The notes beneath the pieces are model-generated. The model did not search any database and was not told the DNA's origin. It was given only the letters and a program-made list of their open reading frames with translations. 64,000 nt of DNA from a virus. How positions within the stretch are numbered: the first letter of the stretch is position 1; the number at the start of each line of letters is the position of its first letter. Made by a program: the position numbers and the translations under genes. The stretch lies in the IMG/VR virus record IMGVR_UViG_3300025896_000028, one strand, 5' to 3'. This document shows, in pieces, positions 1,676 to 62,721 of this stretch.

Positions 1676-2064
1676 TGGGGATGAGAGCTAAATTTGCTGT
1701 ATTGATTGAAACTAATCAGTACGCTGGGAACTTTGAAAGAGAAATGTGTGCACATCTAACTGGTCACGTTGGTGATTGCGAAGTTGGTGACGAATTAATC
1801 GATGAAACTGTTGCAGAATTTTTCGATGATGTTATCGGAAATGAAGCTGATGATAATGGTACGTATAGACCAGTAGCGTTGGGTAACGATATCGATGGTG
1901 GTACCAATCAAGGTGTTGTGATTTTCTTTGATGAAGAACCAACACAGGAACACTTGGATATGATAAAAGAAAGACTTGGAACTTTCACATATACCAAAGG
2001 GTTAGAAATAAAAAGTGTGGAATTGATTGAATTTCATAGAAGCACGACTAAAAAAACTATTTAA
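1675..2064 (+). CDS. hypothetical protein, acidic
   Basis: Start overlaps upstream stop (ATGA-type coupling); no recognisable motif. Confidence 0.5.
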   Translation: MGMRAKFAVLIETNQYAGNFEREMCAHLTGHVGDCEVGDELIDETVAEFFDDVIGNEADDNGTYRPVALGNDIDGGTNQGVVIFFDEEPTQEHLDMIKERLGTFTYTKGLEIKSVELIEFHRSTTKKTI

Positions 2065-2065
2065 A

Positions 2066-2569
2066 ATGAAAAATACAAACGAAAAAACAACTGACGAATT
2101 CGTATTCTTTTGGAATGGAATCTACAGTCAGTGGTATTCGTCTAAGTTCAGCATTGCTGGAATCGAATATAATTGCTGTGAGCAATACATGATGGCGATG
2201 AAAGCATTGACATTCAACGACCAAGAGAGTCATGATGCTATCATGGCTGCCGCTAGACCAGTTGACCAAAAATCTTTGGGTCGTACAGTTAAAAACTTTA
2301 ACACAGACAAATGGAATGAAGTGTGTCGAGAATTTGTTTACCAAGGTAACTTGGCTAAATTCACACAAAATCCTAGTCTAAAGGTTGAGTTATTGAAAAC
2401 TGATGACAAAGAAATTGTTGAGGCTAGTCCATACGACAAGATTTGGGGTATTGGAATGGGTGTTGACCACAGAAACATCGAAGATAAAAGCAAATGGCAA
2501 GGAAAAAACTGGTTAGGTGAAGCCATTATGCGAGTAAGAGAAACTTTTAAAAAACAAGAAAATGATTAG
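2066..2569 (+). CDS. NADAR (YbiA/DUF1768) domain protein
   Basis: FFWNGIYSQWY..FSIAGIEYNCCEQYMMAMKA..ASPYDKIWGIGMG matches the NADAR family. Start re-set to the ATG at ~2066 (track starts at 2027). Confidence 0.7.
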   Translation: MKNTNEKTTDEFVFFWNGIYSQWYSSKFSIAGIEYNCCEQYMMAMKALTFNDQESHDAIMAAARPVDQKSLGRTVKNFNTDKWNEVCREFVYQGNLAKFTQNPSLKVELLKTDDKEIVEASPYDKIWGIGMGVDHRNIEDKSKWQGKNWLGEAIMRVRETFKKQEND

Positions 2570-3011
2570 ATATATCGATGGTGACCTAGTAAAGGATGCC
2601 GAAAATTACGAAGTAATTGCACATTGTTGCAACTGTTTTTGCACTATGGGTGCTGGTATTGCCCCGCAAATCAAACATAAATTCCCAGATGCTTACGCTG
2701 CTGACTGCAAGACAGTTCAAGGGGACATTAACAAGCTAGGTACTATTTCATATAGTGAAGCTACAAAACCGATTGTTGTTAACTTGTATGGCCAATATGA
2801 CTATACTGGAAGACGAAGTGGTCAGATGGATTTAGACTATGAAGCTTTACGTTCTGCGTTGAAGTTGATGAAAGCTAAATTCTCTGGTAAAACATTTGGT
2901 TTACCTAAGATTGGTGCTGGGTTAGCTGGTGGTGATTGGGCTACAATTGAAGCAATCATTGACGAAGAACTTCGTGGTGAGTATGTTACGATTGTAAACT
3001 ATGTACCGTAA
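2562..3011 (+). CDS. macro domain (ADP-ribose binding/processing) protein
   Basis: CNCFCTMGAGIAPQIK..VVNLYGQ.. pattern typical of MacroD/Appr-1-p processing domains; overlaps the upstream gene end. Confidence 0.7.
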   Translation: MIRYIDGDLVKDAENYEVIAHCCNCFCTMGAGIAPQIKHKFPDAYAADCKTVQGDINKLGTISYSEATKPIVVNLYGQYDYTGRRSGQMDLDYEALRSALKLMKAKFSGKTFGLPKIGAGLAGGDWATIEAIIDEELRGEYVTIVNYVP

Positions 3012-3787
3012 TGCACTACATAATACAACAAAATGTATTTAGAGAAACTAACTATGACATCATATTTGAAGCCTTAACCAAATTAGGTTTAGAGTATGAA
3101 GTCATAGAATGTTTACCTAACTCTGATAAGTTTGAATTTGTGACTGATAGAAAAGATGTATTTACATTCGGCTCTATTAGAATGGCTAAACTAGCAACTG
3201 AAAACGGTTGGGAACCTGGTTCTTTCTTTGGTGGAAACCACGATTACTCAATATACTCCGAACACTACAAAGAAAACTTATTGAACTACGATTGTGAAAT
3301 CAAAGAGTTTGAAGAAGAATTTGAATGGAACTACGGTGAAATAAAATTCATAAGACCATGCAAGGATTCAAAGTTGTTTACAGGACAAGTATTTACCAAA
3401 ACCAAATGGGATGATATGCTTGAGCAACGTAAACAAAATATAAACTACACCAAATTAACGGAACCACAACTAATTCAAATCGGTATACCGAAAACCATAT
3501 ACAAAGAAGCCAGAACGTGGATTGTTGATGGAAAGATTGTAACCAGTTCTTATTATCGTTTTGGTCAGTATGTTGCTTACGAAGAAAACGTTGAACCAGA
3601 GGGCTTAGAATTCGCTCAGAGAATGGTTGACTTGTATCAAGTTGCTGAGTGTTTTGTGATGGACATTTGCCTAACACCAGATGGTTGGAAGATAGTTGAA
3701 ATCAATTGCATTAATTGTTCTGGTTTTTACAAGGGTGACATGCAAAAGGTTTTGATAGCTTTGGAGAATAAATACAACCCAATATAA
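3011..3787 (+). CDS. ATP-grasp fold protein (phage DUF4343/R2K-like)
   Basis: C-terminal RTWIVDGKIV..YRF..FVMDICLTPDGWKIVEINCINCSGFY resembles ATP-grasp ligases common in phage NAD/ADP-ribose neighbourhoods. Confidence 0.55.
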   Translation: MHYIIQQNVFRETNYDIIFEALTKLGLEYEVIECLPNSDKFEFVTDRKDVFTFGSIRMAKLATENGWEPGSFFGGNHDYSIYSEHYKENLLNYDCEIKEFEEEFEWNYGEIKFIRPCKDSKLFTGQVFTKTKWDDMLEQRKQNINYTKLTEPQLIQIGIPKTIYKEARTWIVDGKIVTSSYYRFGQYVAYEENVEPEGLEFAQRMVDLYQVAECFVMDICLTPDGWKIVEINCINCSGFYKGDMQKVLIALENKYNPI

Positions 3788-4847: not shown

Positions 4848-5147
4848 ATGAAAACAAAATTATTCATGACAGTATTTGTGCTGTTATTATTGACTGGATG
4901 TGCTGATGTGGCACATATACAATTCCTTGACCCTAACCAAGAAATCTATGGTTTCTGGGGTGGTGTTTGGCACGGTATGATTATGTTCCCAGCATTTATC
5001 TGTAGTCTTTTCTCAGATAACATTGCTATCTACGCTATAAACAATAACGGTTTCTGGTATAACTTCGGTTATGTTGGTGGGTTAGGTATTATAATCAAGG
5101 GTATCAAAATCTTTTTTGCTGGTTTAAGAAGTTTAAACAATAGATAA
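4848..5147 (+). CDS. small membrane/lipoprotein
   Basis: Signal peptide with lipobox-like LLLLTGC; hydrophobic segments. Confidence 0.5.
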   Translation: MKTKLFMTVFVLLLLTGCADVAHIQFLDPNQEIYGFWGGVWHGMIMFPAFICSLFSDNIAIYAINNNGFWYNFGYVGGLGIIIKGIKIFFAGLRSLNNR

Positions 5148-5905
5148 TGAAAAAGAAAATCGTAATTTTTAGTGGTGCTGGTTTAGATAGAGAGTCGGGT
5201 GTATTAACATTCCGTGACTGTAAAGATGGCCTTTGGAATAACCACAAAATCGAAGATGTTGCTACACCAGAAGGATGGGCTAAAGACCGAAGTAAAGTTC
5301 TAGATTTTTATAATGAAAGAAGAAGACAAATGCCAGAAGTTGTACCTAATGATGCACATATTGGTTTAGTTGAATTAGAAAAAGAATTTGATGTAATACA
5401 CGTTACACAGAATGTAAGTGACTTATTGGAAAGAGCTGGGGCGACAAACATTATTCACTTGCATGGTGAGTTGACCAAAGCTAGAACAAGCTTCGCAATG
5501 AATAACCCTAATGTTGTTGCATCACAACACGTATATGATATTGGTTATGATGATATTAATTTGGGTGATTTAGATGCAGAATATGAATCTCAATTAAGAC
5601 CACATATTGTATGGTTTAGTGAATATCCATTTGGGGTTGATAAAGCAAATCAAGCATTTAGAGATGCTGATGTTGTTTTGATTATAGGTACAAGTCTTCA
5701 AATTAGTTATACCATTGGATTTTTTGGGTTAACAAAATTAGAGACTCCTATTATCTATATTGACCCAGAACCAAGTCATGACTTGGATTATACTTATCGA
5801 GAATTAAAAGTTGAATATATAACCAAGACAGCAGTTGAAGGTGTAACACAAGTAGTAAATAGATTATTAACACAAGCAATCGGAGACGATAAAAACGACA
5901 AATAA
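5147..5905 (+). CDS. Sir2-family protein lacking zinc-binding cysteines (SirTM-like)
   Basis: N-terminal VIFSGAGLDRESGVLTFRD Rossmann motif of sirtuins; no CxxC..CxxC module. Confidence 0.7.
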   Translation: MKKKIVIFSGAGLDRESGVLTFRDCKDGLWNNHKIEDVATPEGWAKDRSKVLDFYNERRRQMPEVVPNDAHIGLVELEKEFDVIHVTQNVSDLLERAGATNIIHLHGELTKARTSFAMNNPNVVASQHVYDIGYDDINLGDLDAEYESQLRPHIVWFSEYPFGVDKANQAFRDADVVLIIGTSLQISYTIGFFGLTKLETPIIYIDPEPSHDLDYTYRELKVEYITKTAVEGVTQVVNRLLTQAIGDDKNDK

Positions 5906-7221: not shown

Positions 7222-7251
7222 TGTTTATTCAAAATTTTTTATGTACCTTTG
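7222..7251 (+). promoter_or_regulatory. Bacteroidota-type sigma-A promoter (TTTG-N20-TACCTTTG)
   Basis: tttgtttattcaaaattttttatgTACCTTTG lies 16 nt upstream of the ATG at 7268. Confidence 0.6.
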
Positions 7252-7267
7252 TTAAAAATAAATAACT

Positions 7268-8260
7268 ATGAATGATTCAGTATTAGTAGCATTAGATGGT
7301 AGAGAAGATTTAGCGAATAACGTTATTGATTTTATCAATAACAATTCAAAGATAAAAGAGAAAGTAAAGCTAGACATAATCAACAGTCAGAAATTTTCTG
7401 ATGGTGAGTTATGTGTGGATTTCGAAACATCAATTAGAGGCAAGCGAGTATATATTCTATCTAGTCCTAACAATTCAGATGAAATCATAAAGTTAAACCT
7501 AGCGATAGATGCCGCCAAACGTGCAGCTGCTAGAGAGATTATTCCAATCTTACCTTATTTTCCATACGCTCGTCAAGACAAGAAAGACCAATCACGTGGA
7601 CCTATCGGTGCCAAGGTTATGGTTGAAATGATTGAGCATCGTGGAGCAACAGGTGTTATCACATTTGATTTACATGCTGACCAAATCCAAGGGTTTTTCA
7701 ATATCCCAGTTACACACTTAGAAGGTAAAAACGTATTTGATTCATACATCGCTTCGATATATGATGAAGACACTATTCTTTGTGGACCAGATGCTGGTTC
7801 TGGTAAACGTGTTAAACGTATGAAAGACCAATTATCTAACTACCACGACATTTCAATCAATTATGTAATGTTGGATAAGACTCGTAAACAAGCCAACGTT
7901 ATTGACGATATGGTAATCATTGGTGATGTTAGTGGTAAGAACGTAATCATCTTGGATGATATGGTTGATACTGCTGGAACACTTTGCAAAGCCGCTGAAG
8001 TTATTATGGAAGCTGGTGCTAAAAGTGTAAGAGCAATCATTAGTCATGGTATCTGTTCTGGTCCAGCTTTGGCTCGTATTGAAAATTCAGTTCTAACTGA
8101 ATTGGTTATTAGTGATTCCTTAAGAAAACCAACAGATTACAATGGTATCTTTGGTAATGATAAAATCAACGTGATTAGCATGTCAAAACAAATAGGTTTA
8201 GCTGTTAGTGCTATCAATAGTAAAACAAGCTACGAAGGACTTAAAAAAGAAAGATTCTAA
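7268..8260 (+). CDS. ribose-phosphate pyrophosphokinase (PRPP synthetase) homolog; possibly an ADP-ribose pyrophosphokinase (Adps-type)
   Basis: KFSDGE, DLHADQIQGFFNIPV and PRPP-binding loop VIILDDMVDTAGT are Prs-family hallmarks. Confidence 0.85.
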   Translation: MNDSVLVALDGREDLANNVIDFINNNSKIKEKVKLDIINSQKFSDGELCVDFETSIRGKRVYILSSPNNSDEIIKLNLAIDAAKRAAAREIIPILPYFPYARQDKKDQSRGPIGAKVMVEMIEHRGATGVITFDLHADQIQGFFNIPVTHLEGKNVFDSYIASIYDEDTILCGPDAGSGKRVKRMKDQLSNYHDISINYVMLDKTRKQANVIDDMVIIGDVSGKNVIILDDMVDTAGTLCKAAEVIMEAGAKSVRAIISHGICSGPALARIENSVLTELVISDSLRKPTDYNGIFGNDKINVISMSKQIGLAVSAINSKTSYEGLKKERF

Positions 8261-9095: not shown

Positions 9096-9318
9096 CTTCA
9101 CGTATTCCGACAACAATAGAAATCCTATTCAATGTACTGTACTATGTAAAGAAAAACCTAATTATATTGATTTGGAAGACTTGATTTACGTTAAGTTTAA
9201 TCATTACATAACTGAAAACAAATCAGTTAAAATTTCAAAAAACAACATTATTAAGTTTCTGAATAACAATGGTATAGAGTGTGTTAATAGAGCTTATTAC
9301 AAATCTAATAAAAAATAA
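9064..9318 (+). CDS. hypothetical protein
   Basis: ORF in operon context; no recognisable motif. Confidence 0.4.
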   Translation: MENPNYPHRFSFTYSDNNRNPIQCTVLCKEKPNYIDLEDLIYVKFNHYITENKSVKISKNNIIKFLNNNGIECVNRAYYKSNKK

Positions 9319-9319
9319 C

Positions 9320-10090
9320 ATGGGATTATCTTTAGGAGATAGAATGAAAGAATTCTACGAAAACAGAACAAAAACTTTTTTGAATAGAAGAACCATTACC
9401 ATCATTAGACTTGATGGGAAAGGATTCTCTAAATTCACTAAAAATTTAAACAAACCATTCGATGATGGATTCAGTGATGACATGGATGCAACAGCAATCT
9501 TTTTATGTGAGAACATTCAAGGTGCCAAGTTTGCTTATACACAATCTGACGAAATTAGCGTGGTGTTGTGCGACTATGATACACTTGAAACAAGTGCATG
9601 GTTCGACTATAGCGTACAAAAGATGACAAGTATTGCAGCCTCTTTGGCAACTGCTAAGTTCAACCAATTAAGACATTTAAGGTCAACAATGCAAGGTATG
9701 GAAGGGTTAGCTGAAAGCTTAAACAAACTAGCTTTCTTTGATGCTCGTGTATTCCAAGTTCCTACTGTTGATGAAATGGTTAACGCAATGATTTTCAGAC
9801 AGCAAGACTGTACTAGAAATAGTATTAGTATGGCAGCATCTGCTAACTTCTCTCACAAACTATTAGAGGGTAAATCTGGTAGTGATAAACAGGAAATGTT
9901 ATTTAACGAGAAGGGTATCAATTGGAATGACTATAAAACCAAGTATAAACGTGGTGTAGTTATCAAAAGAGTAGCTGATATAGACTATAGTGGTGAAGCA
10001 GCTGCTGTTAGACGTAACTGGGTACCATTAGAAACACCTATATTCACTAGTGATAGGGATTTTCTAATAAATCTTATGCCTAAATTGTAA
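9320..10090 (+). CDS. tRNA-His guanylyltransferase (Thg1)-like 3'-5' nucleotidyltransferase (TLP)
   Basis: IIRLDGKGFSKFT, YTQSDEISVVL and RQQDCTRNSI match Thg1/TLP catalytic motifs. Start set to the ATG at 9320 (track begins at 9281, overlapping the upstream gene). Confidence 0.8.
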   Translation: MGLSLGDRMKEFYENRTKTFLNRRTITIIRLDGKGFSKFTKNLNKPFDDGFSDDMDATAIFLCENIQGAKFAYTQSDEISVVLCDYDTLETSAWFDYSVQKMTSIAASLATAKFNQLRHLRSTMQGMEGLAESLNKLAFFDARVFQVPTVDEMVNAMIFRQQDCTRNSISMAASANFSHKLLEGKSGSDKQEMLFNEKGINWNDYKTKYKRGVVIKRVADIDYSGEAAAVRRNWVPLETPIFTSDRDFLINLMPKL

Positions 10091-12687: not shown

Positions 12688-12969
12688 ATGAAAAAGATTT
12701 ACAAATTTGAGGCCGATTTTGGTCGCATGGGAGAATTAGAAGGCGTATTCGTATCAACTGATGAAAAATTAGAAGCGTTATACGGAAAAGAAATTTATTT
12801 TGGTGAAGTGTTAGGTAAACATTCGGAAGTTATTTTAACACTAGATGTAGAACATATCACTGAAGTAACTGATGATGAAAAATTCATTGAACTTTTCGTA
12901 TTCTACAGGTTAGAAAATGGTTACAATCCTTTTGATTACTACGAAGAAGACGAAGAAGACGAAGAATAA
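12688..12969 (+). CDS. hypothetical protein with poly-acidic C-terminus
   Basis: Ends EEDEEDEE, encoded by a gaagaagac repeat. Confidence 0.45.
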   Translation: MKKIYKFEADFGRMGELEGVFVSTDEKLEALYGKEIYFGEVLGKHSEVILTLDVEHITEVTDDEKFIELFVFYRLENGYNPFDYYEEDEEDEE

Positions 12970-13421
12970 TGGCAAAGGTAATTGCAGCTGGTTTATTTAT
13001 CGTAAGAAAGGATAAAAAACTATTGATTTGTCATCCGACAAATCATGCCGAAGACTTTTACAGCATACCCAAGGGTAAGGTAGAGAAAGATGAAACTTTT
13101 TTAGAGGGTGCTTTTAGAGAAACCTATGAAGAAACTAATCTAAGTTTAAAAGATAGTAATAAATTTACTATTTACCCTTTGCAATCAGTCAACTATACAC
13201 ATAAAAGAAAGATACTATATCCTTTTTTATGTTTAGAGAACTTTGATTCAAAGATTGAATGGGGTGCTGTTGAGTTAAAGTGTAATTCCGATGTAGAAGA
13301 TGCTCGTGGTAACTTCCCAGAAATGGATGGTTATAAATGGGTAACACTAGAAGAAGCTAGACCACTGTTACATAACACACAGGCAGCTTGTATCGATAAG
13401 ATTTTACAAATAATTGGATAA
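12969..13421 (+). CDS. NUDIX hydrolase
   Basis: Nudix box GKVEKDETFLEGAFRETYEETNL. Confidence 0.75.
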   Translation: MAKVIAAGLFIVRKDKKLLICHPTNHAEDFYSIPKGKVEKDETFLEGAFRETYEETNLSLKDSNKFTIYPLQSVNYTHKRKILYPFLCLENFDSKIEWGAVELKCNSDVEDARGNFPEMDGYKWVTLEEARPLLHNTQAACIDKILQIIG

Positions 13422-16359: not shown

Positions 16360-16889
16360 CAAAGATTCATAATAGTACGTTTCCAATTTTTTTTCAAGGT
16401 GATGAACTTAAGTACGTTAATTCAAGAGGTCTTAAAAACTTTGCTGACTTGGATACTAATATTGAAACTCATATAAGGAAAATAAAAGCCAATAACCCAG
16501 ATTCTGAAATAGAGGTAGTTTTTTATAGCCTTGAGAATGTGTTTAATGGTAAGTTAAGTTTAAATCTGGATGGTACGCAATCTTTTTTGATGGCTAGATA
16601 TGCTTATGTTGATGTTTCAGTGGGCCCCATCTATATCGTTGATTCACATGATAATGTAATCTTAGATTCTTTAAGATATTATAAGTACAAATTATACAAT
16701 CCAAACGAATCAGAACGAAATAACCCAGACGAATTTCAAGGTAAGCATGTCGTATGGTTTCAACCAGTTAGCTATAATGAAAAACTTAAACATAAAATAG
16801 GTTGGTCGGAAAAATTAAGTAGAATTACCGATGAAAATTTCATAAAACAATTAGAATTAGAATTGATTAAAAAAATAATAAATGAATAA
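16353..16889 (+). CDS. hypothetical protein
   Basis: ORF in operon context; no recognisable motif. Confidence 0.45.
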   Translation: MLTKIHNSTFPIFFQGDELKYVNSRGLKNFADLDTNIETHIRKIKANNPDSEIEVVFYSLENVFNGKLSLNLDGTQSFLMARYAYVDVSVGPIYIVDSHDNVILDSLRYYKYKLYNPNESERNNPDEFQGKHVVWFQPVSYNEKLKHKIGWSEKLSRITDENFIKQLELELIKKIINE

Positions 16890-17376
16890 AAAGAAACAGC
16901 ATAAGCTTAATTCAGAAATCATCGCAAAAGAAGTGCGTGTTGCTGAAGAAGGTGGTATTATGGCGTTATCAGCAGCCCTAGCAATTGCTGAATCTAGAAA
17001 CATGGATTTGGTTCTTATCAACGATAAGACAGTCCCAGTAATTTGTAAGATAATGAACTACGAGAAGTTCATCTACGAATTAAGCAAGAAGCCTAAAAAC
17101 AAAGGGTTAGACGTAAAAGAAATCAAGCTTGGACCGAATACAACAGATAATGATTTGGAATACCGAATCAAACACATGGTTGAATTCCTTAAAAAAGGTC
17201 ACAGAGTTAAGATTAGCCTTCAGTTCAGAGGTCGTCAAATGCAACACATTGATATTGGACAACAACAAATACTTAAAATGATTGTTGCCGTTGAAGAATT
17301 TGGGTCAGCAGAAGCTATGCCTAAGTTAGAAGGTAAAAAAATGTTTGCGGTAATCAAACCGAAAGTGGTTAAATAA
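16882..17376 (+). CDS. infC: translation initiation factor IF-3 homolog
   Basis: Aligns end-to-end with bacterial IF3: INSEIIAKEVRV.., KIMNYEKFIYE.., LQFRGRQMQH.., C-terminal KKMFAVIKPK. Confidence 0.8.
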   Translation: MNKKKQHKLNSEIIAKEVRVAEEGGIMALSAALAIAESRNMDLVLINDKTVPVICKIMNYEKFIYELSKKPKNKGLDVKEIKLGPNTTDNDLEYRIKHMVEFLKKGHRVKISLQFRGRQMQHIDIGQQQILKMIVAVEEFGSAEAMPKLEGKKMFAVIKPKVVK

Positions 17377-28553: not shown

Positions 28554-28841
28554 TTGCAAAAACACTTGCATATTAAATAAAAAGGTAGTACCTTTGTAAT
28601 ATAATTACGCATAGAAAGATAAACAAGTAAGTGCCATACAGCTATGGAGACAAAATATGGGAAGTGAAAGACCCCATACCTTACAACACAACAAGAAGTG
28701 TTATGTTTGTTGAGTATGATAATGAAAGGGTAGTCAGAATAACTAAAGTATTTTTGCAAGAGGAAATAGTTATAGGGGTTCAACTCCCCCATACGCCAAG
28801 TGCTGGGGTATGAGACAGATTTATCCCAATCTTGATGGATG

Positions 28842-28935
28842 TGTGATTAACGGAGAAGCTTTGGATGGAAGTTGGGTTCGAGTCCCAAGGAAGGTCATGG
28901 CTGATAGCTTAGCGGCTTGTAGAGGTTCGAATCCT
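28842..28935 (+). tRNA. tRNA-like element (~94 nt, isotype unresolved)
   Basis: Perfect 7-bp acceptor ggagaag/cttctcc; T-arm agagg-ttcgaat-cctct. Contains an internal hairpin ttggg-ttcgagt-cccaa whose loop would present CGA. D-region is non-canonical. Confidence 0.35.
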
Positions 28936-29374
28936 CTCTTCTCCACGCTACTTTAGTCAGTTTATGAACTGGCACTTGCAGTGGGATTCTGCACATGATG
29001 ATTTTTTTGTTCGAGGTTAACAGATAGTGGAACCACCATTAATGCCAGTAAGGTCTGGCGTGTGACACAAGGCTTAGCGGCTGGGAGTGTAATCAAAACC
29101 AATTAGACTTGGTATGTCTATCCACTATTAGTCAATTACAAATGGCGTATGTTAATTAAGAGGTAGCACTGGCAACTATGCCGTAAATAGTAGGGAGTAC
29201 AAGTTCCTAAAGAGATGAAGCAGATGCAATATTCTCGTGCATGTACGCTACTCACCGATTTGTATAGGTGACAAGAATTAGATAAGTGGTGGAAAAGCTA
29301 AGCTGACTTCATTAGAAGTGGTGGTTCTGGGAGAATCTTAAATTAGTAGACACATAACGGCTTGGAGCAATTGG

Positions 29375-29445
29375 GGATAGCTCGTTAAACACTCAATCCG
29401 AGCGTGGCTAGCTTGGCGGTGCAAGTTCAAATCTTGCCTTATCTA
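29375..29445 (+). tRNA. tRNA-like element (~71 nt)
   Basis: T-arm gcaag-ttcaaat-cttgc; acceptor ggatagc/cttatct pairs at 6 of 7 positions; weak D-arm. Confidence 0.3.
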
Positions 29446-29482
29446 CTAAAACTGGTGACAGAGTAAGCTGAACACACATAGT

Positions 29483-29806
29483 ATGAAACTAAAAAGAGAA
29501 AATGTTTTCCCATGGGAAAATGCTATTAATGACCTTCTTTACGAAATGGAAGGTAATGAAGATTATTTAAAAGGTGCTGAAGATTTTTTAAAACTTTTAA
29601 ATGATAAAAGACTATTAAATAGTAAATATCAAATTGGCGATTTAGTCAAGATTAATTTCGGTGATACTGGAACAATTAAAAATTGTAAAGTCATAAAAGT
29701 ACATTTTACACATGATAAAATATTATATGATGTTACAGTTCAACTTAATGTGACACACATCACTAGACTATACAACATTGACAGCGTTTTCGTTGTCGGA
29801 AAATAA
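29483..29806 (+). CDS. hypothetical protein embedded in the RNA-gene region
   Basis: 107-aa ORF with an ATG start between tRNA-like elements. Confidence 0.45.
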   Translation: MKLKRENVFPWENAINDLLYEMEGNEDYLKGAEDFLKLLNDKRLLNSKYQIGDLVKINFGDTGTIKNCKVIKVHFTHDKILYDVTVQLNVTHITRLYNIDSVFVVGK

Positions 29807-30158
29807 AAACCGTTCGTAAGGAAGAATGATTGGAAGTTCTTTTGTTTGAAATGTTAGTTTTTAATTTGAGGGGTACGTAACCCGATAACAAGGTTCCTAG
29901 CATTAGAAAGAAAAGTATTCGCTGGTGGTCATAAGCCAGAGATTGTGGGTTCGAGTCCCATCCTTACCACAAGTCGCTTTGATGTTCCACTATGGAGAGC
30001 AGTTTGGATAGTTATGAAACTGGTAGCAGAATAGAGGTTTTAAAAGTTTAACCATAATAAAGCACGGCTTATTCCCAAAGAAAGGGGTTTCCTAGCCTAA
30101 TACAGAAACAAAAATAACATGAGGGTGTGTTAACCGAGGCTAAAGGTAGCACCCAAAT

Positions 30159-30362
30159 GGTTAGATGGCAGAATGGAATTGCTAATTAACAAGGTTAAGT
30201 AATGGGTTGCCGATGAGATGAGTTAGTGGACAAGTCGTGTAAACAGGTGTAACATTCATCAACCCAATAAAAGTCGTAATAATAATAAAACCTTATGTCC
30301 CAGTCAAATGGTGTCGACTAAGCGACTATAATTACACACAGGTTCGATTCCTGTTCTAACCA
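30159..30362 (+). tRNA. tRNA-like element with a ~130-nt insertion between D-arm and T-arm (candidate intron-containing tRNA)
   Basis: Perfect acceptor ggttaga/tctaacc; U8; canonical D-arm gcag-aatggaa-ttgc; candidate anticodon stem aatta/taatt flanking the insertion; T-arm acagg-ttcgatt-cctgt; ends ..ACCA. Confidence 0.35.
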
Positions 30363-30594
30363 CGAAGCCTGTTCGAGAGGTAAATCTAAGCGTAATCCTC
30401 TGACGTATAAGGTGCTTAGCTGATTGAGAAGCAGTCTTGGACAATGTGTCTGAAAATATCTTGACTATTCGGAAAGACGAAGATTACTACTTGACATGAG
30501 GCGTTAGCGACACCGAGAGTAGGGTAACAAAGAAAGACGCTCCGTGATGCTAATGATTCGGATATATGTTACTCGTTGCTGGTAGTAATCAAAT

Positions 30595-30668
30595 GGGAGT
30601 ATAGTACAATAGTATAGTATAAAGCGGCTGTAGCTGCGAGAACACGGGTTAGAGTCCCGTTACTTCCA
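30595..30668 (+). tRNA. tRNA-like element (74 nt), anticodon arm non-canonical
   Basis: Acceptor gggagta/tacttcc (7 bp including one GU); D-stem gtac/gtat; T-arm acggg-ttagagt-cccgt; discriminator A. The anticodon position is occupied by a gcggc-tgta-gctgc tetraloop hairpin. Confidence 0.4.
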
Positions 30669-30781
30669 CAAGAAATCCAACGGTTAAGCCCTATGGTCAC
30701 TGTACACAAACTATGGTAATTGGCAATGACGATGTGCACTCTTCATACTGCAATGGTTGACACTAGGAAAGACTAGAAACT

Positions 30782-30880
30782 GCGAGAGTGGCGAAGTTGG
30801 TAAACGCTAAGGTCTTTAGCCCGAAGTACAAGGGAACAACTAGGGACGTGGTGTCGGTGGTTCGAGTCCACCCTCTCGCA
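30782..30880 (+). tRNA. tRNA-like element (~99 nt), possibly type II or intron-containing
   Basis: Perfect acceptor gcgagag/ctctcgc; 3-bp D-stem gcg/cgc with an 11-nt loop; T-arm ggtgg-ttcgagt-ccacc; discriminator A. 48 nt lie between the D-arm and T-arm. Confidence 0.45.
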
Positions 30881-30977
30881 CAAAATTGGGGAATAGCAAC
30901 ATGAAGGTCGGCAAACTTTCAGACGGTTATAATCCTTTCTATCACGTTTAGCTTTGCCGAGCGACATGGTGATAGTT

Positions 30978-31048
30978 GATTCATTAGTGGAGTGGAACCA
31001 CGGGGGGCGTTGAGCCCGCAGACACTGGTTCGAATCCAGTATGAGTTT
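30978..31048 (+). tRNA. tRNA-like element (~71 nt)
   Basis: Acceptor gattcat/atgagtt (2 GU pairs); D-arm gtgg-agtggaa-ccac; T-arm actgg-ttcgaat-ccagt; weak anticodon stem with loop ttgagcc (possible GAG). Confidence 0.35.
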
Positions 31049-31156
31049 CTAGGTTATACTATTAAAGCGACATTGGTTGAGTAGTCCAGTGAGGGCACAC
31101 ATTAACAGTTTTAGCGAAAGGCTAAGGTGATAGACCACCATATAGTATAACCGAAT

Positions 31157-31255
31157 ATATAGCTAGCTCAGTGGTAGAGTGCCGAAATGGGAGCACATCG
31201 GAAGATGCAGTACCAATCGCTTGCGGAGATGGGGGTTCGATTCCCTCGCTATGTA
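31157..31255 (+). tRNA. tRNA-like element (~99 nt)
   Basis: Acceptor atatagc/gctatgt; D-arm gctc-agtggta-gagt; T-arm ggggg-ttcgatt-ccctc; 49 nt lie between the D-arm and T-arm. Confidence 0.45.
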
Positions 31256-31272
31256 CTAAAAAAGAATACAAT

Positions 31273-31968
31273 ATGAAGATAGTAGCACTAGGTGATACAC
31301 ATGGTCGTGTATTATGGGAAGAAATCGTGAAAAAAAATAAGGATGCTGATAAAATTATCTTCATAGGTGACTATTTTGATACTCATTACGATATAACTAC
31401 TGACCAACAGATAGAAAACTTCACAAAAATTTTAGAATTCAAGAAAAATAACATGGAACAAGTAGTTTTACTTCTTGGTAACCATGATTTTCACTATTTA
31501 AAAGGTGCTGGTGAGAAATATTCTGGTCATGATACCTTCAGAGCGTTAGATATTAACATAGTTTTGCAACCCGCAGTCGATTCTGGACTAATTCAGATGT
31601 GTTTTAAACATGACAAATACGTTTTTACACATGCTGGGGTAACAAAAACATGGTGTTTACGCAATGGAATCAAAACAAATGACCTAGAAAAGGAGATAAA
31701 TGATAAATTTACTACTGAATTAGATTCATTTTGCTTTGCATATGGACAAAATATGAGTAGAACAGGTAATGATGTGACTCAATCACCTATATGGGTGCGT
31801 ATTCCATCACTATTTGCTGATGCTATTGACGATATTACCTATGTAATAGGGCATACTACACAAGAAAGTATCGTAATTACTGATAAAATCATAGCTATAG
31901 ACACTATAGGTACTAGTGGGGAATACCTAGTAATAGAAAATAATGTACCCACACCAGAAAAACTTTAG
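31273..31968 (+). CDS. calcineurin-like metallophosphoesterase
   Basis: IVALGDTHGR, FIGDYFD and LLGNHDFHY motifs. The track's 5' extension (31171) overlaps the tRNA-like element, so the start is re-set to the ATG at ~31273. Confidence 0.7.
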   Translation: MKIVALGDTHGRVLWEEIVKKNKDADKIIFIGDYFDTHYDITTDQQIENFTKILEFKKNNMEQVVLLLGNHDFHYLKGAGEKYSGHDTFRALDINIVLQPAVDSGLIQMCFKHDKYVFTHAGVTKTWCLRNGIKTNDLEKEINDKFTTELDSFCFAYGQNMSRTGNDVTQSPIWVRIPSLFADAIDDITYVIGHTTQESIVITDKIIAIDTIGTSGEYLVIENNVPTPEKL

Positions 31969-32000
31969 GATATTAACTAAATTAATCGTACCTTTGCACT

Positions 32001-32444
32001 ATGAAATCAATAACGAAAAACAAACGAGCATATTTTGAATACAATATACTCGAAAAGCACATAGCTGGTATTCAACTACAAGGTTCCGAGGTCAAATCAA
32101 TAAAATCAAGCAAGGTTTCTATAGTGGAAGCCTATTGTTTTATTACCAATGATGAAATCTTTATCAAAGGAATGCACGTAACCGAACACAAAGAAGGTGG
32201 CAAGTACTACAACCATCAACCGCTAAGGGATAGAAAGCTTCTTATGAAAAAGAAAGAAATAATCAAGCTACGTGAAAGTATTTCACAAAAAGGCTTGACT
32301 ATTGTGCCATTGGAGATTATACTATCAAACACTGGATTCATTAAATTGGAAATTGGTCTTGCCAAAGGTAAGCACCTATACGACAAACGCAATAGTTTGA
32401 AAGAGAAAGACTTAAAAAGAGAAGTTGAAAGAAACTTAGATTAA
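32001..32444 (+). CDS. smpB: SsrA-binding protein SmpB homolog
   Basis: NKRAYFEYNILEKHIAGIQLQGSEVKSIK.., ..RDRKLLMKKKEI.., ..LEIGLAKGKHLYDKR.. align with bacterial SmpB. TAccTTTG motif at ~31990. Confidence 0.85.
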   Translation: MKSITKNKRAYFEYNILEKHIAGIQLQGSEVKSIKSSKVSIVEAYCFITNDEIFIKGMHVTEHKEGGKYYNHQPLRDRKLLMKKKEIIKLRESISQKGLTIVPLEIILSNTGFIKLEIGLAKGKHLYDKRNSLKEKDLKREVERNLD

Positions 32445-32537
32445 TTAGGATAATAAGAAGATTATTCCTACCGTCCTGTGGCTATACGAGGTTGTTGCCG
32501 AATTAAAAACCGACCTCACAAACTAATATTTAAAATT

Positions 32538-32831
32538 ATGACTGATATTTCAAAAAATACCGAATTGCAACAATCTTGTATAACCGCTGTTATGAACTGG
32601 ATTTCTTGCGATGAAAGATTACCAATGTGTTACAGTACAGGAAACTGGGACGGAAAAAAAAGCGATAATTTTATTGGTGAAACAATTACAGGAAAACAAT
32701 TTATAGGCTGTTGTTACGAGGGAACGATGGACGGTTCTAAATTCTTTGATTGGTATCAAATAGATGAATTGAATAACAATGATTGGACGATTAATGAAAC
32801 TGTTTCTCGTTGGTTACCAATTCCGTTTTAA
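32538..32831 (+). CDS. DUF551-like phage protein
   Basis: C-terminal ..WTINETVSRWLPIPF resembles the DUF551 tail W..W.PLP. Start re-set to the internal ATG (MTDISKN). Confidence 0.35.
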   Translation: MTDISKNTELQQSCITAVMNWISCDERLPMCYSTGNWDGKKSDNFIGETITGKQFIGCCYEGTMDGSKFFDWYQIDELNNNDWTINETVSRWLPIPF

Positions 32832-32900
32832 TCTAGTTCATAACTTTACACTTAAACATTAAATACTTAAACATTAAACAACTAAACCCCAAATTTTTTT

Positions 32901-33785
32901 ATGAGACAATTTAAAATTGCACAGAAGTACACAAACACTGAGAACGATTCATTTAAACAATACTTAAAAGACATATCTGGTATTCCTATGTTCACACCAG
33001 AGGAAGAAAAGATATGCACTGAAAAAGCTAGTAAAGGTGATAGAAAAGCGATTGACGAATTGGTGCGTAGAAACCTACGTTTCGTAGTATCGGTTGCGAA
33101 GCAATATGCAACTGAAAATGTTCACTTGGAAGACTTGGTTAACGAAGGTAACATTGGGTTGGTATTGGCGGCTGAGAAGTTCACACCAGATATGGGTTAC
33201 AAATTTATTTCATACGCTGTATGGTGGGTTAGAAAAATCATAATGGAACATATTACCAAGTATGGTAAATTGGTTCGTATTCCAGCAAACAAGGTTAACA
33301 ACTTGTCTAAGTTGGATAAGTATATCCAAGAGTTGGAACAAAAAGCTGGTCGTAGTGTTGACATCAACGAAGTTATTAGTGAGTTCGGTAACGAGTTATC
33401 TAGCGAAGACTTTATGTTCTTAGATGTATTGAATACATACAACATGGATTCAATGGACCGAACAATTGGAACTGATGATGGTGGTAATGGTTCTATGTTA
33501 TCAGACTTAATCTCTGATGATTCAACATATAAAGCTACAGACCATTTATTGAATCAACAAGATATTCAATCAGAGATTGCGGCTAGCCTAGATATCTTGA
33601 AGCCAAGAGATAAACGTATCATGGAAGCATTGTTCGGGTTGAATGGGGCAATACCAATGACCTTGAAAGAGATTGGTGATGAAGTTGGTATCACACGTGA
33701 AATGGCTCGTCAAGTTAAAGAGAAATCACTTAAGAAATTAAGACAAAATGCTAGAGTAAATTTAGCTTACAATGAATTGAACTAA
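32901..33785 (+). CDS. sigma-70 family RNA polymerase sigma factor (regions 2-4)
   Basis: Region 2 RRNLRFVVSVAKQY, region 2.4 YAVWWVRKIIMEHI, region 4 HTH LKEIGDEVGITREMARQVKEKSLKKLR. Confidence 0.8.
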   Translation: MRQFKIAQKYTNTENDSFKQYLKDISGIPMFTPEEEKICTEKASKGDRKAIDELVRRNLRFVVSVAKQYATENVHLEDLVNEGNIGLVLAAEKFTPDMGYKFISYAVWWVRKIIMEHITKYGKLVRIPANKVNNLSKLDKYIQELEQKAGRSVDINEVISEFGNELSSEDFMFLDVLNTYNMDSMDRTIGTDDGGNGSMLSDLISDDSTYKATDHLLNQQDIQSEIAASLDILKPRDKRIMEALFGLNGAIPMTLKEIGDEVGITREMARQVKEKSLKKLRQNARVNLAYNELN

Positions 33786-34081
33786 TGGACATTGTAAAAC
33801 ATAACGTAATGCTTGTGAAGGTTTATATTCGCAAGCATTATAAAGTTTATAGGATATACCCGTTTACCGATGACATTTCAAATGGTTATCGAAGCTTTAG
33901 TATTTTTAGCTATGAGGAAAAGTGTGAAGTCAATAACTTTAACGTCTACAATTTATTGAATAAATTATTTGGTGTTGAAGATACGATAGTTGCAGCAGCC
34001 TTCAAAGAAATATGTAACGAGGAAATATTAAAATTACAATCCACGCAATTAAAAATAGACTATGAAGGAGATAGTATCTAA
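33785..34081 (+). CDS. hypothetical protein
   Basis: ORF in operon context; no recognisable motif. Confidence 0.4.
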   Translation: MDIVKHNVMLVKVYIRKHYKVYRIYPFTDDISNGYRSFSIFSYEEKCEVNNFNVYNLLNKLFGVEDTIVAAAFKEICNEEILKLQSTQLKIDYEGDSI

Positions 34082-34400
34082 ATTTTTAGAAGACCAATAT
34101 CGATTTACGTTATCAACGTATTCATCTTATATGTTACAGGATAGATATACAAAACAAGATGTATATCTTAGGACTGTATTTGAAAACCTTAAAACTATTT
34201 TTGGTGTTGAGGACGATGAACTACAAGACATCTGGGATTTCTGGGCCGATAAAAAGATTATTGAATTGAATAACCGTATCACGGATATTCGATACAAGGT
34301 TTTTGAGATTACAGGTCATGATGTTGAAGTTGGAATCAACGAAATCAATGCGGCTTTAAGCAAGGACGACCTAGAACAAATAATAAGGATGAATGAATAA
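34062..34400 (+). CDS. hypothetical protein
   Basis: ORF in operon context; no recognisable motif. Confidence 0.4.
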   Translation: MKEIVSKFLEDQYRFTLSTYSSYMLQDRYTKQDVYLRTVFENLKTIFGVEDDELQDIWDFWADKKIIELNNRITDIRYKVFEITGHDVEVGINEINAALSKDDLEQIIRMNE

Positions 34401-34475
34401 GTCATGTACACAAATGTGTACATAGAGGTTGTCTTTTATTGAAAAACTAGATATTTATATTAAAAGAAATACGTC

Positions 34476-34841
34476 ATGATAAAAACATTTATAAAACAAG
34501 CTTTGAGAGAAAACTTATTCAAACGCTTGGCAGAGAAAAGTAAAAATACGCCAGAGCCTAAATCTGATGATGAAGAAACTAGCAAAGAATATGGTGAGCT
34601 TTCACCAAAAGAGAAAAAGAAAGTAGATACTCAAACCATTGAGATTAGACAAGCTGTTGGTCCTGGGAAATCCCTTAAGATTTCTCAAGCCATTGAAGAC
34701 GCTAACTTAGGTTCGGCAACAGATGCCAGTGCGAGAGGTAAATTCACACAGAAAATCTTCGGTAGAAATGATAGACATCTTTCACCAAAAGAGGCAGCCG
34801 CTCTTAGTAAGGTAACTAAGAATCCTGGTGCTTATAACTAA
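34476..34841 (+). CDS. hypothetical Lys/Glu-rich protein
   Basis: ORF followed by a terminator. Confidence 0.45.
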   Translation: MIKTFIKQALRENLFKRLAEKSKNTPEPKSDDEETSKEYGELSPKEKKKVDTQTIEIRQAVGPGKSLKISQAIEDANLGSATDASARGKFTQKIFGRNDRHLSPKEAAALSKVTKNPGAYN

Positions 34842-34849
34842 TACACACT

Positions 34850-34880
34850 AACCCCGACACTGTTCGGGGTTTTTTATTTC
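34850..34880 (+). terminator. rho-independent terminator
   Basis: accccgacactgttcggggt followed by tttttattt. Confidence 0.65.
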
Positions 34881-34952
34881 TGAGTCTTTTTTTCTATCAT
34901 AGTTTATCATTTTATAAGTTAACGGTGATTACTGCCGATATAAACGATTTTC

Positions 34953-35408
34953 TTAAATTAAATGATATAGATTTTTATTTAGTTTATAAATTTTATTAGC
35001 TTCTTCTTCAGTATCAAAATAACCAATGTGTTTTTTAACATTATTTACGGTTATTTGTACGTGCCATTTTTTTATATTTTTATGATAATAAAAACCTTTA
35101 CCTTTAGTGTTCCACATATTTTGACCACGAGTCACACTTCTTAAATTATCGATTCTATTATCTGAACGTATTCTATTTATATGGTCTATTTCTTCAACAC
35201 ATTCCTTATTAACCCAATACCATGCAAAGATATGACCTTTTAAATAATATCTCTTTTTTTCATAATTGAAGTTTATTTCGAAATATCCTCTACCGTCCAT
35301 ATTTTTTAAAACACCACCTCTAACACCATAAATAATTCCAGTTTCTGGGTTGTAGGTAAAACCTTTATCTATAACTATTTTACACTTTTCTTCTTTTGTC
35401 ATATACAA
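34953..35408 (-). CDS. HNH homing endonuclease (free-standing)
   Basis: Only convincing minus-strand gene. GYFEINFNYEKKRYYLKGHIFAWYWVNKECVEEIDHINRIRSDNRIDNLRSVTRGQN is an HNH_3/NUMOD-like motif. Confidence 0.75.
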   Translation of the reverse strand: MYMTKEEKCKIVIDKGFTYNPETGIIYGVRGGVLKNMDGRGYFEINFNYEKKRYYLKGHIFAWYWVNKECVEEIDHINRIRSDNRIDNLRSVTRGQNMWNTKGKGFYYHKNIKKWHVQITVNNVKKHIGYFDTEEEANKIYKLNKNLYHLI

Positions 35409-61757: not shown

Positions 61758-61971
61758 ATGGTTAAACAGGAAGTAACATACTACCCAGATACATTTAGAA
61801 TCAAAGAATACAAAGAATATCATAACGATGTTTTAGTTGTTCACACCAAATATGATGAGAACAACAAAAAGGTTTATATATATCTAGCCTATGCTGATTT
61901 TCTATGGGAAACTAAAGAAAAAATATTGGTGTAGATTTGCATATATGAAATATTATATGTACCTTTGTACT

Positions 61972-62721
61972 ATGAAAAAAGATAAACTATACGGAGCAAT
62001 ACTTGGTGACCTCGTAGGACAACCCTACGAGTTTCCCATTATGGCAAACTTCCCACCAGAAGATACAATCAACCTACATAACCCAGATTCAGTATTTAGC
62101 GATGATACGCTAATGACACTGGCAACCGCCAAAGCAATCCTAGATAACCAATCATTCGAGGAAGCATACAAAGAAGTAGGTATGAGATACCAAGGCGACC
62201 ACTATGGCAAAGACTTCAAAGAATGGCTTAACTCACCAATGGGTACGATTAATAAATCTTGGGGCAACGGGTGTCTGATGAGAATAGCACCGTTTATGTA
62301 TCTATCAAACGCTTTGTTAACAACCAAAGAACTTATCGCTGAATCTTGCCTAACATCACACGTGAACGCTGAAAGCATTGTATATTCGTTGGAATTGGCT
62401 GAACTGTACTATACAAATCTTAATGAGTATGACTACTTTATTAAGTTTAAATTATTTCCATTTACAAAGTTTGAAGTGAAAGCCAAAGATACATTTAGAT
62501 TCTGTAAAAGTGCATTTATCTATCATTCAGATAAGAATACCCAAGATGCTATCAAAAATGTTGTTAGCTGTGGCGGTGATACAGATACCAACGCATCAAT
62601 AGTTGGTGAACTACTTAACTATCACCTTCAAGACCTAACACAAGCAGACATAGACTACGTAGAAAGTAAACTAGACCCTTATCTACTAGATATCCTTAAA
62701 CGATTTAATGAAAGATACTAA
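61972..62721 (+). CDS. ADP-ribosylglycohydrolase (ARH/DraG family)
   Basis: N-terminal LYGAILGDLVGQPYEF (GAxxGDxxGxPxE) and C-terminal SCGGDTDTNASIVGELL di-metal motifs. Start re-set to the ATG after tacctttgtact (track begins at 61891). Confidence 0.75.
   Translation: MKKDKLYGAILGDLVGQPYEFPIMANFPPEDTINLHNPDSVFSDDTLMTLATAKAILDNQSFEEAYKEVGMRYQGDHYGKDFKEWLNSPMGTINKSWGNGCLMRIAPFMYLSNALLTTKELIAESCLTSHVNAESIVYSLELAELYYTNLNEYDYFIKFKLFPFTKFEVKAKDTFRFCKSAFIYHSDKNTQDAIKNVVSCGGDTDTNASIVGELLNYHLQDLTQADIDYVESKLDPYLLDILKRFNERY

Follow-up and report, generated by a model that had tools for sequence, protein, structure and literature searches.

A tRNA-Leu-like element in a jumbo phage as a member of a family of candidate scaffold RNAs with hypervariable cores

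Phages of Bacteroidota have already yielded transfer RNA (tRNA) genes that resist simple interpretation, as the Lak megaphages of Prevotella carry tRNAs with 'enigmatic' introns (Devoto et al. 2019, PMC6784885). Here we describe a 204-nt element at positions 30159–30362 (+ strand) of a 64,000-nt stretch of IMG/VR virus record IMGVR_UViG_3300025896_000028 (the window), which an initial annotation had taken for a tRNA gene with a large foreign segment between D-arm and T-arm, possibly an intron, an inserted mini-element or the mark of a dead tRNA. At a probability of about 0.5, the sequence comparisons below favour an RNA gene that is functional and belongs to a phage-specific, tRNA-Leu-derived family (the scaffold family), in which a structured, gene-specific core replaces the anticodon and variable arms and is retained; the element is probably neither an intron-bearing nor a dead tRNA. 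The Lak tRNAs and the scaffold family have in common that they belong to Bacteroidota phages and are tRNA genes with inserts of unexplained mechanism. The Lak inserts are also highly conserved between genomes, and one of them is tRNA-like, much as some scaffold-family cores hold T-arm-like hairpins. In contrast, and as far as a comparison by description allows, Lak genomes have a few assignable tRNAs each (Tyr, Thr), whereas in the scaffold family over 100 unrelated cores share a single frame of the tRNA-Leu type, the anticodon is not consistent, and tandem arrays as well as insertions in the D-loop occur.

Several other systems share parts of this organization. In the engineered 'tRNA scaffold' of Ponchon and Dardel a structured RNA reportedly replaces the anticodon arm, and RNase P and RNase Z are said to process the chimera, which is protected from nucleases. 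This is the same architecture that we infer for the phage family, although the engineered scaffold is a laboratory design, and we know of no natural phage counterpart that has been described. Non-decoding tRNA-like folds serve as RNase P and RNase Z cleavage signals in the plant mitochondrial t-elements, the MALAT1 mascRNA and the MHV68 TMER vtRNAs, and the alternation of elements and open reading frames (ORFs) in the phage arrays resembles such tRNA punctuation; in those systems, however, the cargo lies outside the tRNA-like fold, and they are eukaryotic or organellar. The 'species 1 and 2' RNAs of phage T4 (rnaC and rnaD) are stable non-tRNA RNAs of about 120–140 nt that lie in the tRNA cluster and are processed with it, but they are not a multi-copy scaffold family, and the likeness is one of description only. 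YrlA (Chen et al. 2014, PMC4201824), which some phages carry as well, is a noncoding RNA with an acceptor-like stem, a D-arm and a T-arm and without anticodon function. Its RNA ends form a Ro-binding helix at the position of the anticodon stem and its acceptor is closed by a loop, whereas the scaffold family ends at the acceptor; among the window's genes we saw none for Rsr/Ro. Finally, bacterial-type tRNAs interrupted in the anticodon region by group I introns are known, such as tRNA-Leu(UAA) of cyanobacteria and examples from Patescibacteria (PMC13011429), but these introns are at least about 200 nt long and have a conserved P3–P9 core that is detectable with Rfam, while the scaffold-family inserts are about 10–150 nt, unrelated to each other and without a match.

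By inspection the element has the canonical features of an elongator tRNA, namely a 7-bp acceptor, a D-arm with G18G19, a T-arm loop and a discriminator. The acceptor 5′ strand GGTTAGA (30159–30165) forms seven Watson-Crick pairs with TCTAACC (30355–30361), and a compensatory variant of this helix, GGTCAGA/TCTGACC, is present at locus L012. U8, G9, the D-arm and position 26 follow at 30166–30183, as placed by alignment to the family D-arm, with T8 and G9 at 30166–30167 and the D-arm GCAG-AATGGAA-TTGC, which retains A14, A15, G18, G19 and A21, at 30168–30182. On the 3′ side the T-arm ACAGG-TTCGATT-CCTGT (30338–30354) has the T-stem of the main family, and the acceptor 3′ strand, the discriminator A (30362) and a conserved next C (30363) make up 30355–30363. 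The perfect acceptor, the U8, the textbook D-arm and the T-arm described initially were thus all found in place. Of the '..ACCA' end read there, the letters are present as the last CC of the acceptor plus the discriminator, but positions 30362–30364 are A-C-G and the element does not encode CCA. What sets the element apart is the 154-nt core (30184–30337) that takes the place of the anticodon and variable arms and makes it the longest of the family, as the others listed are 60–162 nt. The core includes an AT-only helix of AATTA (30184–30188) and TAATT (30329–30333) followed by the 4-nt ACAC, the family motif GAGATGAG at 30215–30222, a run of four TAA at 30277–30288 and two further possible helices (AAGGTT/AACCTT and GGGTTG/CAACCC). 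Unspliced, the element has no canonical anticodon stem with a 7-nt loop and U33.

To look for relatives we scanned public collections with the candidate's T-arm and acceptor 3′ strand, which yielded four stretches in IMG/VR and at least 120 stretches in metagenome contigs; all family counts drawn from metagenomes are among the matches listed and are therefore lower bounds. There were at least 163 matches, 147 of the 163 listed having a complementary 7-nt strand upstream, and at least 145 unique elements whose lengths (60–162 nt) show a broad peak at 90–130 nt and not at the tRNA-like 75–90 nt. The frame common to nearly all of them is AGTCAGG-UG-GCGGAAUGGUAGACGC…ACAGGUUCGAAUCCUGU-CCUGACU-A, i.e. 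AGTCAGG-TG-GCGGAAT(T)GGTAGACGC … ACAGG-TTCGAAT-CCTGT-CCTGACT-A, with a D-arm that, going by the E. coli sequence, we take to be of the bacterial tRNA-Leu type. The acceptor pair AGTCAGG/CCTGACT dominates (94/112 Leu-type members listed). The cores between the conserved halves are about 10–150 nt long and wholly unlike each other in sequence between paralogs, some members carry insertions inside the D-loop besides the core, and several contigs hold tandem arrays of three to nine elements that alternate with small ORFs. A C follows the discriminator in 139/143 listed elements, and CCA is encoded in one only. The candidate fits the family frame over its full length, from acceptor, UG and Leu-type D-arm to T-arm (ACAGG-UUCRAWU-CCUGU) and discriminator, and it has a unique core and the C after the discriminator, again with no encoded CCA. 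Because the cores are unique and no copies of a mobile sequence were found, the idea of an inserted mini-element finds no support.

The family is restricted to phages. Among 185,579 species-representative genomes the frame gave 24 matches, all on contigs of metagenome-assembled genomes (MAGs), many of them binned as Chitinophagaceae, Sediminibacterium, Flavobacterium or other Bacteroidota, and a terminase large-subunit gene begins 3 nt downstream of one family member. This near-absence from cellular genomes, together with the terminase neighbour, indicates a phage family and not a host tRNA. A megablast search of the region against 50,697 phage records returned no match.

We then built a covariance model (R1) from 49 non-redundant members, leaving out the window phage and the 233-kb IMG/VR contig L001, to which the window is near-identical, and modelling only the pairs of the acceptor, a 3-bp D-stem and the T-stem. 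In a search of both strands of the whole 64-kb window the top match was exactly 30159–30362 (45.8 bits, E = 6.3e-9, model positions 1–98), which establishes the candidate, from nucleotide 1 to discriminator A73, as a family member and confirms that a tRNA-like gene with a large foreign segment lies here. An alignment of 37 matches, taken from the window and from divergent relatives, has 97.7% of its scaffold cells in standard pairs, compared to ∼40% when the 3′ partners are slid; double-sided changes occur at 15/15 scaffold pairs, and none of 500 shuffles reach the observed values. Although the model itself guided this alignment, which also takes in a few ordinary tRNAs, the signal is large. 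The Rfam tRNA model (RF00005) likewise fits family members end to end (positions 1–71, 30–47 bits), while their cores match no Rfam family. The candidate itself was reported neither by default ARAGORN, whose one tRNA in the whole window is at 30978–31049, nor, perhaps due to its 204-nt length, by Rfam at gathering score or at E up to 10; the three tRNA matches at gathering score and the fourth in a permissive scan all lie elsewhere.

The behaviour of the cores bears most directly on what the element might be. Seven groups of elements with the same core were found on different contigs, and in these the similarity starts at acceptor nucleotide 1 and stops just past the discriminator. Consensus folds of the groups retain their helices by compensatory changes, e.g. 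TGTAG/CTACA, TATAG/CTATA and TGTAA/TTACA, or GGC/GCC versus CGC/GCG. A linkage of the cores to neighbouring genes was considered and rejected, as both flanks are unrelated in 7/7 groups. In the array around the candidate, the tRNA-like gene at 31157–31255, which has a D-arm of the class-I type and an anticodon region enlarged by 39 nt, differs from its counterparts at loci L011 and L013 by six compensatory pairs in the acceptor and T stems, with a 45-nt core that is almost invariant, and the member at 30782–30880 is 96% identical in the same comparison. Disposable introns or junk should change faster than the stems around them and not more slowly, so the cores, hypervariable between paralogs and conserved between orthologs, appear to be under selection and not disposable. 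The comparison with related phages that the initial annotation proposed as a check speaks against an intron, as the insert segments are the most conserved parts in the phage's own lineage.

Could the conserved frame alone be what matters? In such a model the elements would be tRNA-like processing or punctuation signals for RNase P and RNase Z, like the plant mitochondrial t-elements, and maybe also recombination repeats that shuffle small genes, with the cores as tolerated expansions. The alternation of elements and small ORFs agrees with this, an ORF starting within 45 nt downstream of 38% of the elements listed (distance peak ∼15 nt), as does the fact that the scaffold is near-invariant while the flanks on both sides are unrelated between contigs and core length, at about 10–150 nt, is unconstrained. 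However, such signals would not require cores that are conserved across unrelated contexts with compensatory changes and nearly invariant in the window's lineage, many distinct cores per genome would be needless, and the window elements are packed in a noncoding array and not between genes. We consider this explanation rather unlikely.

An intron-containing tRNA-Leu is a still less probable alternative. Here ∼133 nt (roughly 30195/6 to 30328) would be removed by an unspecified self-splicing or protein-dependent route to leave a 71-nt tRNA-Leu(AAG) with the loop A-C-A-A-G-G-W, decoding CUU. In-silico removal of these ∼133 nt indeed lets ARAGORN call tRNA-Leu(AAG), the D-arm is of the Leu type with A73, G37 fits a CUN-reading tRNA-Leu, and the AATTA/TAATT helix is in the right place. 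In addition, a GAG motif is enriched in the family's cores, short members with the same acceptor and T-arm resemble real tRNAs, e.g. L139 Ile(GAT) and L075 Leu(GAG), and there is the precedent of the Lak 'enigmatic introns' (PMC6784885). Nevertheless, the best spliced form has C33 in place of the near-universal U33, and the known splicing routes left no recognizable signature. No group I, group II, ribozyme or other non-tRNA Rfam family matched the element at E up to 10 (27000–35000 scanned), which answers the group I/II check proposed earlier, and the insert, as had been remarked there, is short (about 133–154 nt, compared to at least about 200 nt for group I and 400 nt for group II), with no detectable catalytic core. 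Nor can the family share such a core, because its members' inserts are about 10–150 nt with unrelated sequences, too short and diverse for a common ribozyme. Hammerhead and other small ribozymes were set aside, as one sequence, CCGAUGAG, matches the hammerhead CUGAUGA box only in part and no Rfam ribozyme match was obtained.

For protein-dependent splicing we searched for bulge-helix-bulge (BHB) motifs whose excision leaves 68–95 nt. The single strict match would excise most of the D-arm, and at least one match occurs in 17% of shuffled cores, so no usable motif was found. Genes for EndA, RtcB or Rnl, i.e. a splicing endonuclease or ligase, were not found among 50 window ORFs (∼47 of at least 140 aa; Pfam, PHROGs), with ∼170 kb of the genome and the host lying outside this search. 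The intron mode of ARAGORN called 91/111 real members intron-containing tRNAs, compared to 82–92/111 with shuffled cores; as shuffled cores give an equal rate, these calls reflect the frame only. The anticodons called are scattered over most amino acids, with no consistent family anticodon, as would be expected at random. The AATTA/TAATT helix and the adjoining ACAC exist as first described, but a role as anticodon stem is not backed by the family, where a helix of at least 5 bp at this position is found in 8/97 real elements and 4–11/97 shuffled ones; on its own the helix is not significant and may be due to chance. Furthermore, because some members carry D-loop insertions, the expansions are not limited to the anticodon region, and the inserts are more conserved than the stems. 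Intron-less tRNA calls numbered 25 among the 143 elements listed, covering a minority of them; several have abnormal loops, and a few look genuine (such as the Ile(GAT) and Leu(GAG) members named above). The same acceptor and T-arm thus also occur in real tRNAs, but a gene with the Leu-type frame is, as a rule, not a tRNA. Together these results leave an intron, as tRNA-Leu(AAG) with C33, as a minor possibility for this one sequence.

A decaying tRNA pseudogene, with its anticodon region broken by a junk insertion, would account for the lack of a canonical anticodon loop, for a core fold no more stable than shuffles and for the failure of default tRNA finders to detect the candidate. On the other hand, every scaffold helix pairs perfectly, with the tertiary nucleotides retained, the candidate strongly matches a family under purifying selection with covariation, and it lies within 320 nt that are 100% identical in L001, while the surrounding array is 97–98% identical. 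We regard a dead tRNA, the other fate considered initially, as exceedingly improbable. Hardly more credible is a tmRNA-like (transfer-messenger RNA-like) partner of the phage SmpB, in which a tRNA-like domain and an internal message with four UAA (30277–30288) would rescue stalled ribosomes. The window does encode SmpB (32001–32444, Pfam 1.5e-52) and an RNase II/R without a detected tmRNA, the frame has no anticodon and the four UAA in the core are in frame. But the 3:70 pair is U-A and not the G3:U70 alanine identity pair, a further in-frame UAA two codons upstream of the run leaves no tag ORF, the D-arm is complete, unlike that of a tmRNA tRNA-like domain, the element is part of a large family with unrelated cores, and no such element lies near any of nine other SmpB loci. 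Neither ARAGORN -m on the window region and 25 loci nor the Rfam tmRNA families on the window region detected a tmRNA. A permuted tmRNA, in which the T-arm at 28775 precedes CATACGCCA and the latter pairs with TGGCGTATG at 29143, was also considered and dropped, since L011 and L013 lack the T-arm piece.

While these comparisons favour a retained core, several observations weigh against our interpretation. The candidate is an outlying, divergent family member by its sequence; it has A15 but C48, and hence no A15:U48 Levitt pair, and its acceptor GGUUAGA/UCUAACC departs from the dominant one, although the element at 3477–3600 of L012 is intermediate between it and the main family. No diverged ortholog of its core exists, the L001 sequence being identical over 320 nt, so that the structure of this particular core is putative, and no homolog of it was found in 169 loci except the near-identical L001 contig. 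Fold stability was uninformative (z = -0.5 for the whole element and +0.3 for the insert versus shuffles). The compensatory changes seen in other cores rest on groups of two to three sequences. A search for antisense targets of the candidate core in the window gave matches at chance level only (up to 12 nt), and no target or ligand was found for any core. Finally, the motif GAG[AU][AU]R is enriched about 7–8-fold in cores at inconsistent positions and in inconsistent structural contexts; its GAG might be a remnant of a Leu(GAG) anticodon or a functioning one, although the motif may instead be a binding motif.

The frame is also of interest for what it might retain of tRNA-Leu identity, as the acceptor, D-arm, T-arm and tertiary nucleotides would together form the 'top half and elbow' of a tRNA. 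Bacterial leucyl-tRNA synthetase (LeuRS) relies on A73, U8-A14, A15-U48, G18-U55 and G19-C56, and the anticodon arm is dispensable for aminoacylation (PMC2377443). Among the members listed A15 is retained in 97%, U48, the nucleotide preceding the T-stem and the Levitt partner of A15, in 89%, the D-loop GG in 91% and A73 in 88%, so leucylation of the main family is plausible. It is unlikely to be essential, given that 12% of members have G73. The candidate carries all of these sequence determinants except U48.

How would such an RNA be made and used? The window belongs to a low-GC (∼33%) jumbo-phage genome with related contigs of up to 369 kb, and its T-arm motifs cluster at 28.8–31.3 kb. A promoter element, GTACCTTTG at 28588–28596 (+), heads this RNA array, and none is found inside the 2.7-kb noncoding array itself. 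The corresponding motif [G/T/A]TACCTTTG occurs 61 times in the window against 14 expected, almost always on the + strand and a few bases upstream of ORF starts (e.g. 28588–28596, 31988–31996 and 7243–7251), and it is a Bacteroidota-type promoter element, pointing to the host phylum. The fixed-spacing Bacteroidota promoter pattern was not enriched in the window, whereas the shorter GTACCTTTG motif was, and a sigma-70 promoter and terminator scan was uninformative. We infer which enzymes might process the RNA, that its core would be retained and what the core might do. The 2.7-kb array (28.6–31.3 kb) would be transcribed from the promoter at ∼28590 as a single precursor, host RNase P would cleave at nucleotide 1, RNase Z or an exonuclease would trim past A73, and the CCA-adding enzyme would complete the 3′ end. 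The tRNA frame would thereby supply defined ends and stability, while the 154-nt core would stay in the mature RNA as its functional, diversifying part, e.g. as a protein- or RNA-binding module in phage-host conflict. Such an RNA would decode no codon, and it may be leucylated, as the frame keeps LeuRS determinants, but the model does not require this.

The same array holds four further members found with R1, all on the + strand. The second-best match is the 99-nt member at 30782–30880 already mentioned (34.6 bits, E = 3.6e-6; Rfam tRNA 41.5 bits with 38 extra nt). The member at 29280–29445 (27.3 bits, E = 2.4e-4) has both a core and a 51-nt D-loop insertion, and its orthologs in L011 and L013 show compensatory T-stem changes. 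D-loop insertions of this kind, 20–51 nt long and placed just before G18G19, are also seen in L102, L143, L113 and L129. The member at 28852–28945 (24.3 bits, E = 1.3e-3; Rfam tRNA 25.8 bits) contains a second T-arm-like hairpin in its core, the inner hairpin at 28872–28888, and nested hairpins of this type, GGGTTCGANTCCC, recur in cores of L142 (1519–1636), L031 and L086. A weak, 155-nt member lies at 29815–29969 (19.7 bits, E = 0.017), and its acceptor covaries with those of L011 and L013.

Other parts of the array are also distinctive. A tRNA-like gene of 74 nt at 30595–30668 (Rfam tRNA 40 bits), for which L011 and L013 have no counterpart, carries the alanine identity set, G3:U70 and A73. 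The loop at its anticodon position is 6 nt long (CTGTAG) and would grow to 8 nt on opening of the last pair. The array's only 'standard' tRNA (30978–31049), which has G33 and not U33, changes its anticodon between close relatives, from TTG in the window and L013 (2471–2543) to TGG in L001 (5979–6050) and TTT in L011 (4693–4765). The spacer before it (30881–30977) differs from L011 (4597–4692) at 1/97 nt, the flanking genes differing more, and the array spacers may themselves be functional RNAs. A hairpin of the form NNNN-GAAAGA-NNNN, with covarying 4-bp stems (CTAG/CTAG, CTTG/CAAG, CTCG/CGAG, GCTG/CAGC and CGTG/CACG), is found at 30762–30775, before the member at 30782, at 30467–30480 and at 3457–3470 and 3666–3679 of L012, and with 8/143 members listed. 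It lies 4–6 nt upstream of some element 5′ ends and may be a processing or leader signal. The sole ORF in the 2.7-kb noncoding stretch (107 aa, 29483–29806) directly follows the member at 29280–29445 and has no Pfam or PHROG match; L011 and L013 lack it, and in L001 a shorter segment that does not match takes its place, as might be expected of a small mobile gene cassette.

Outside the array, the window encodes a set of proteins for RNA and translation, namely SmpB, RNase II/R (19406–21334), IF3 (16882–17376), a Thg1-like tRNA 5′-end repair enzyme (9281–10090) and an RNA-repair-type HAD/PNK-like domain (18296–18811). It also carries a cluster of genes for NAD+ salvage and ADP-ribose metabolism (NAPRTase, NADAR, Macro, Sir2, PRPP synthetase, Nudix and ADP-ribosylglycohydrolase) at 14–1057, 2027–3011, 5147–5905, 7268–8260, 12969–13421 and 61891–62721. 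An HNH endonuclease gene on the minus strand (34953–35408), with a weak AP2-like match (E = 0.007, below the Pfam cutoff), is probably a homing endonuclease; few minus-strand ORFs reach 140 aa, and of these it alone matches a family.

Beyond this one element, a wider proposal, which we hold tentatively and at less than even odds, is that Bacteroidota phages possess a natural 'tRNA scaffold' system, in which a tRNA-Leu-derived frame, possibly chargeable with leucine, displays more than 100 structured cores, often from many genes per genome, and these cores act in phage-host conflict as effectors such as decoys, aptamers or guides. Full-text literature searches, incomplete in their coverage, turned up no account of hypervariable cores in a common frame of the tRNA-Leu type, so a prior description is possible; the family is apparently undescribed and has a fair chance of being a new functional class. 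Since intron-mode predictors give arbitrary anticodons here, inferences on codon usage or recoding from such calls are unsafe. If the reading is true, the family would account for many phage 'tRNAs with enigmatic introns', 'undetermined' tRNAs and tRNA 'pseudogenes', and if the cores are retained and functional, phages would have independently reached the tRNA-scaffold design of biotechnology. These phages would then command a large repertoire of small structured RNAs with defined ends, which would constitute a new layer of phage noncoding RNA and a source of stable RNA modules.

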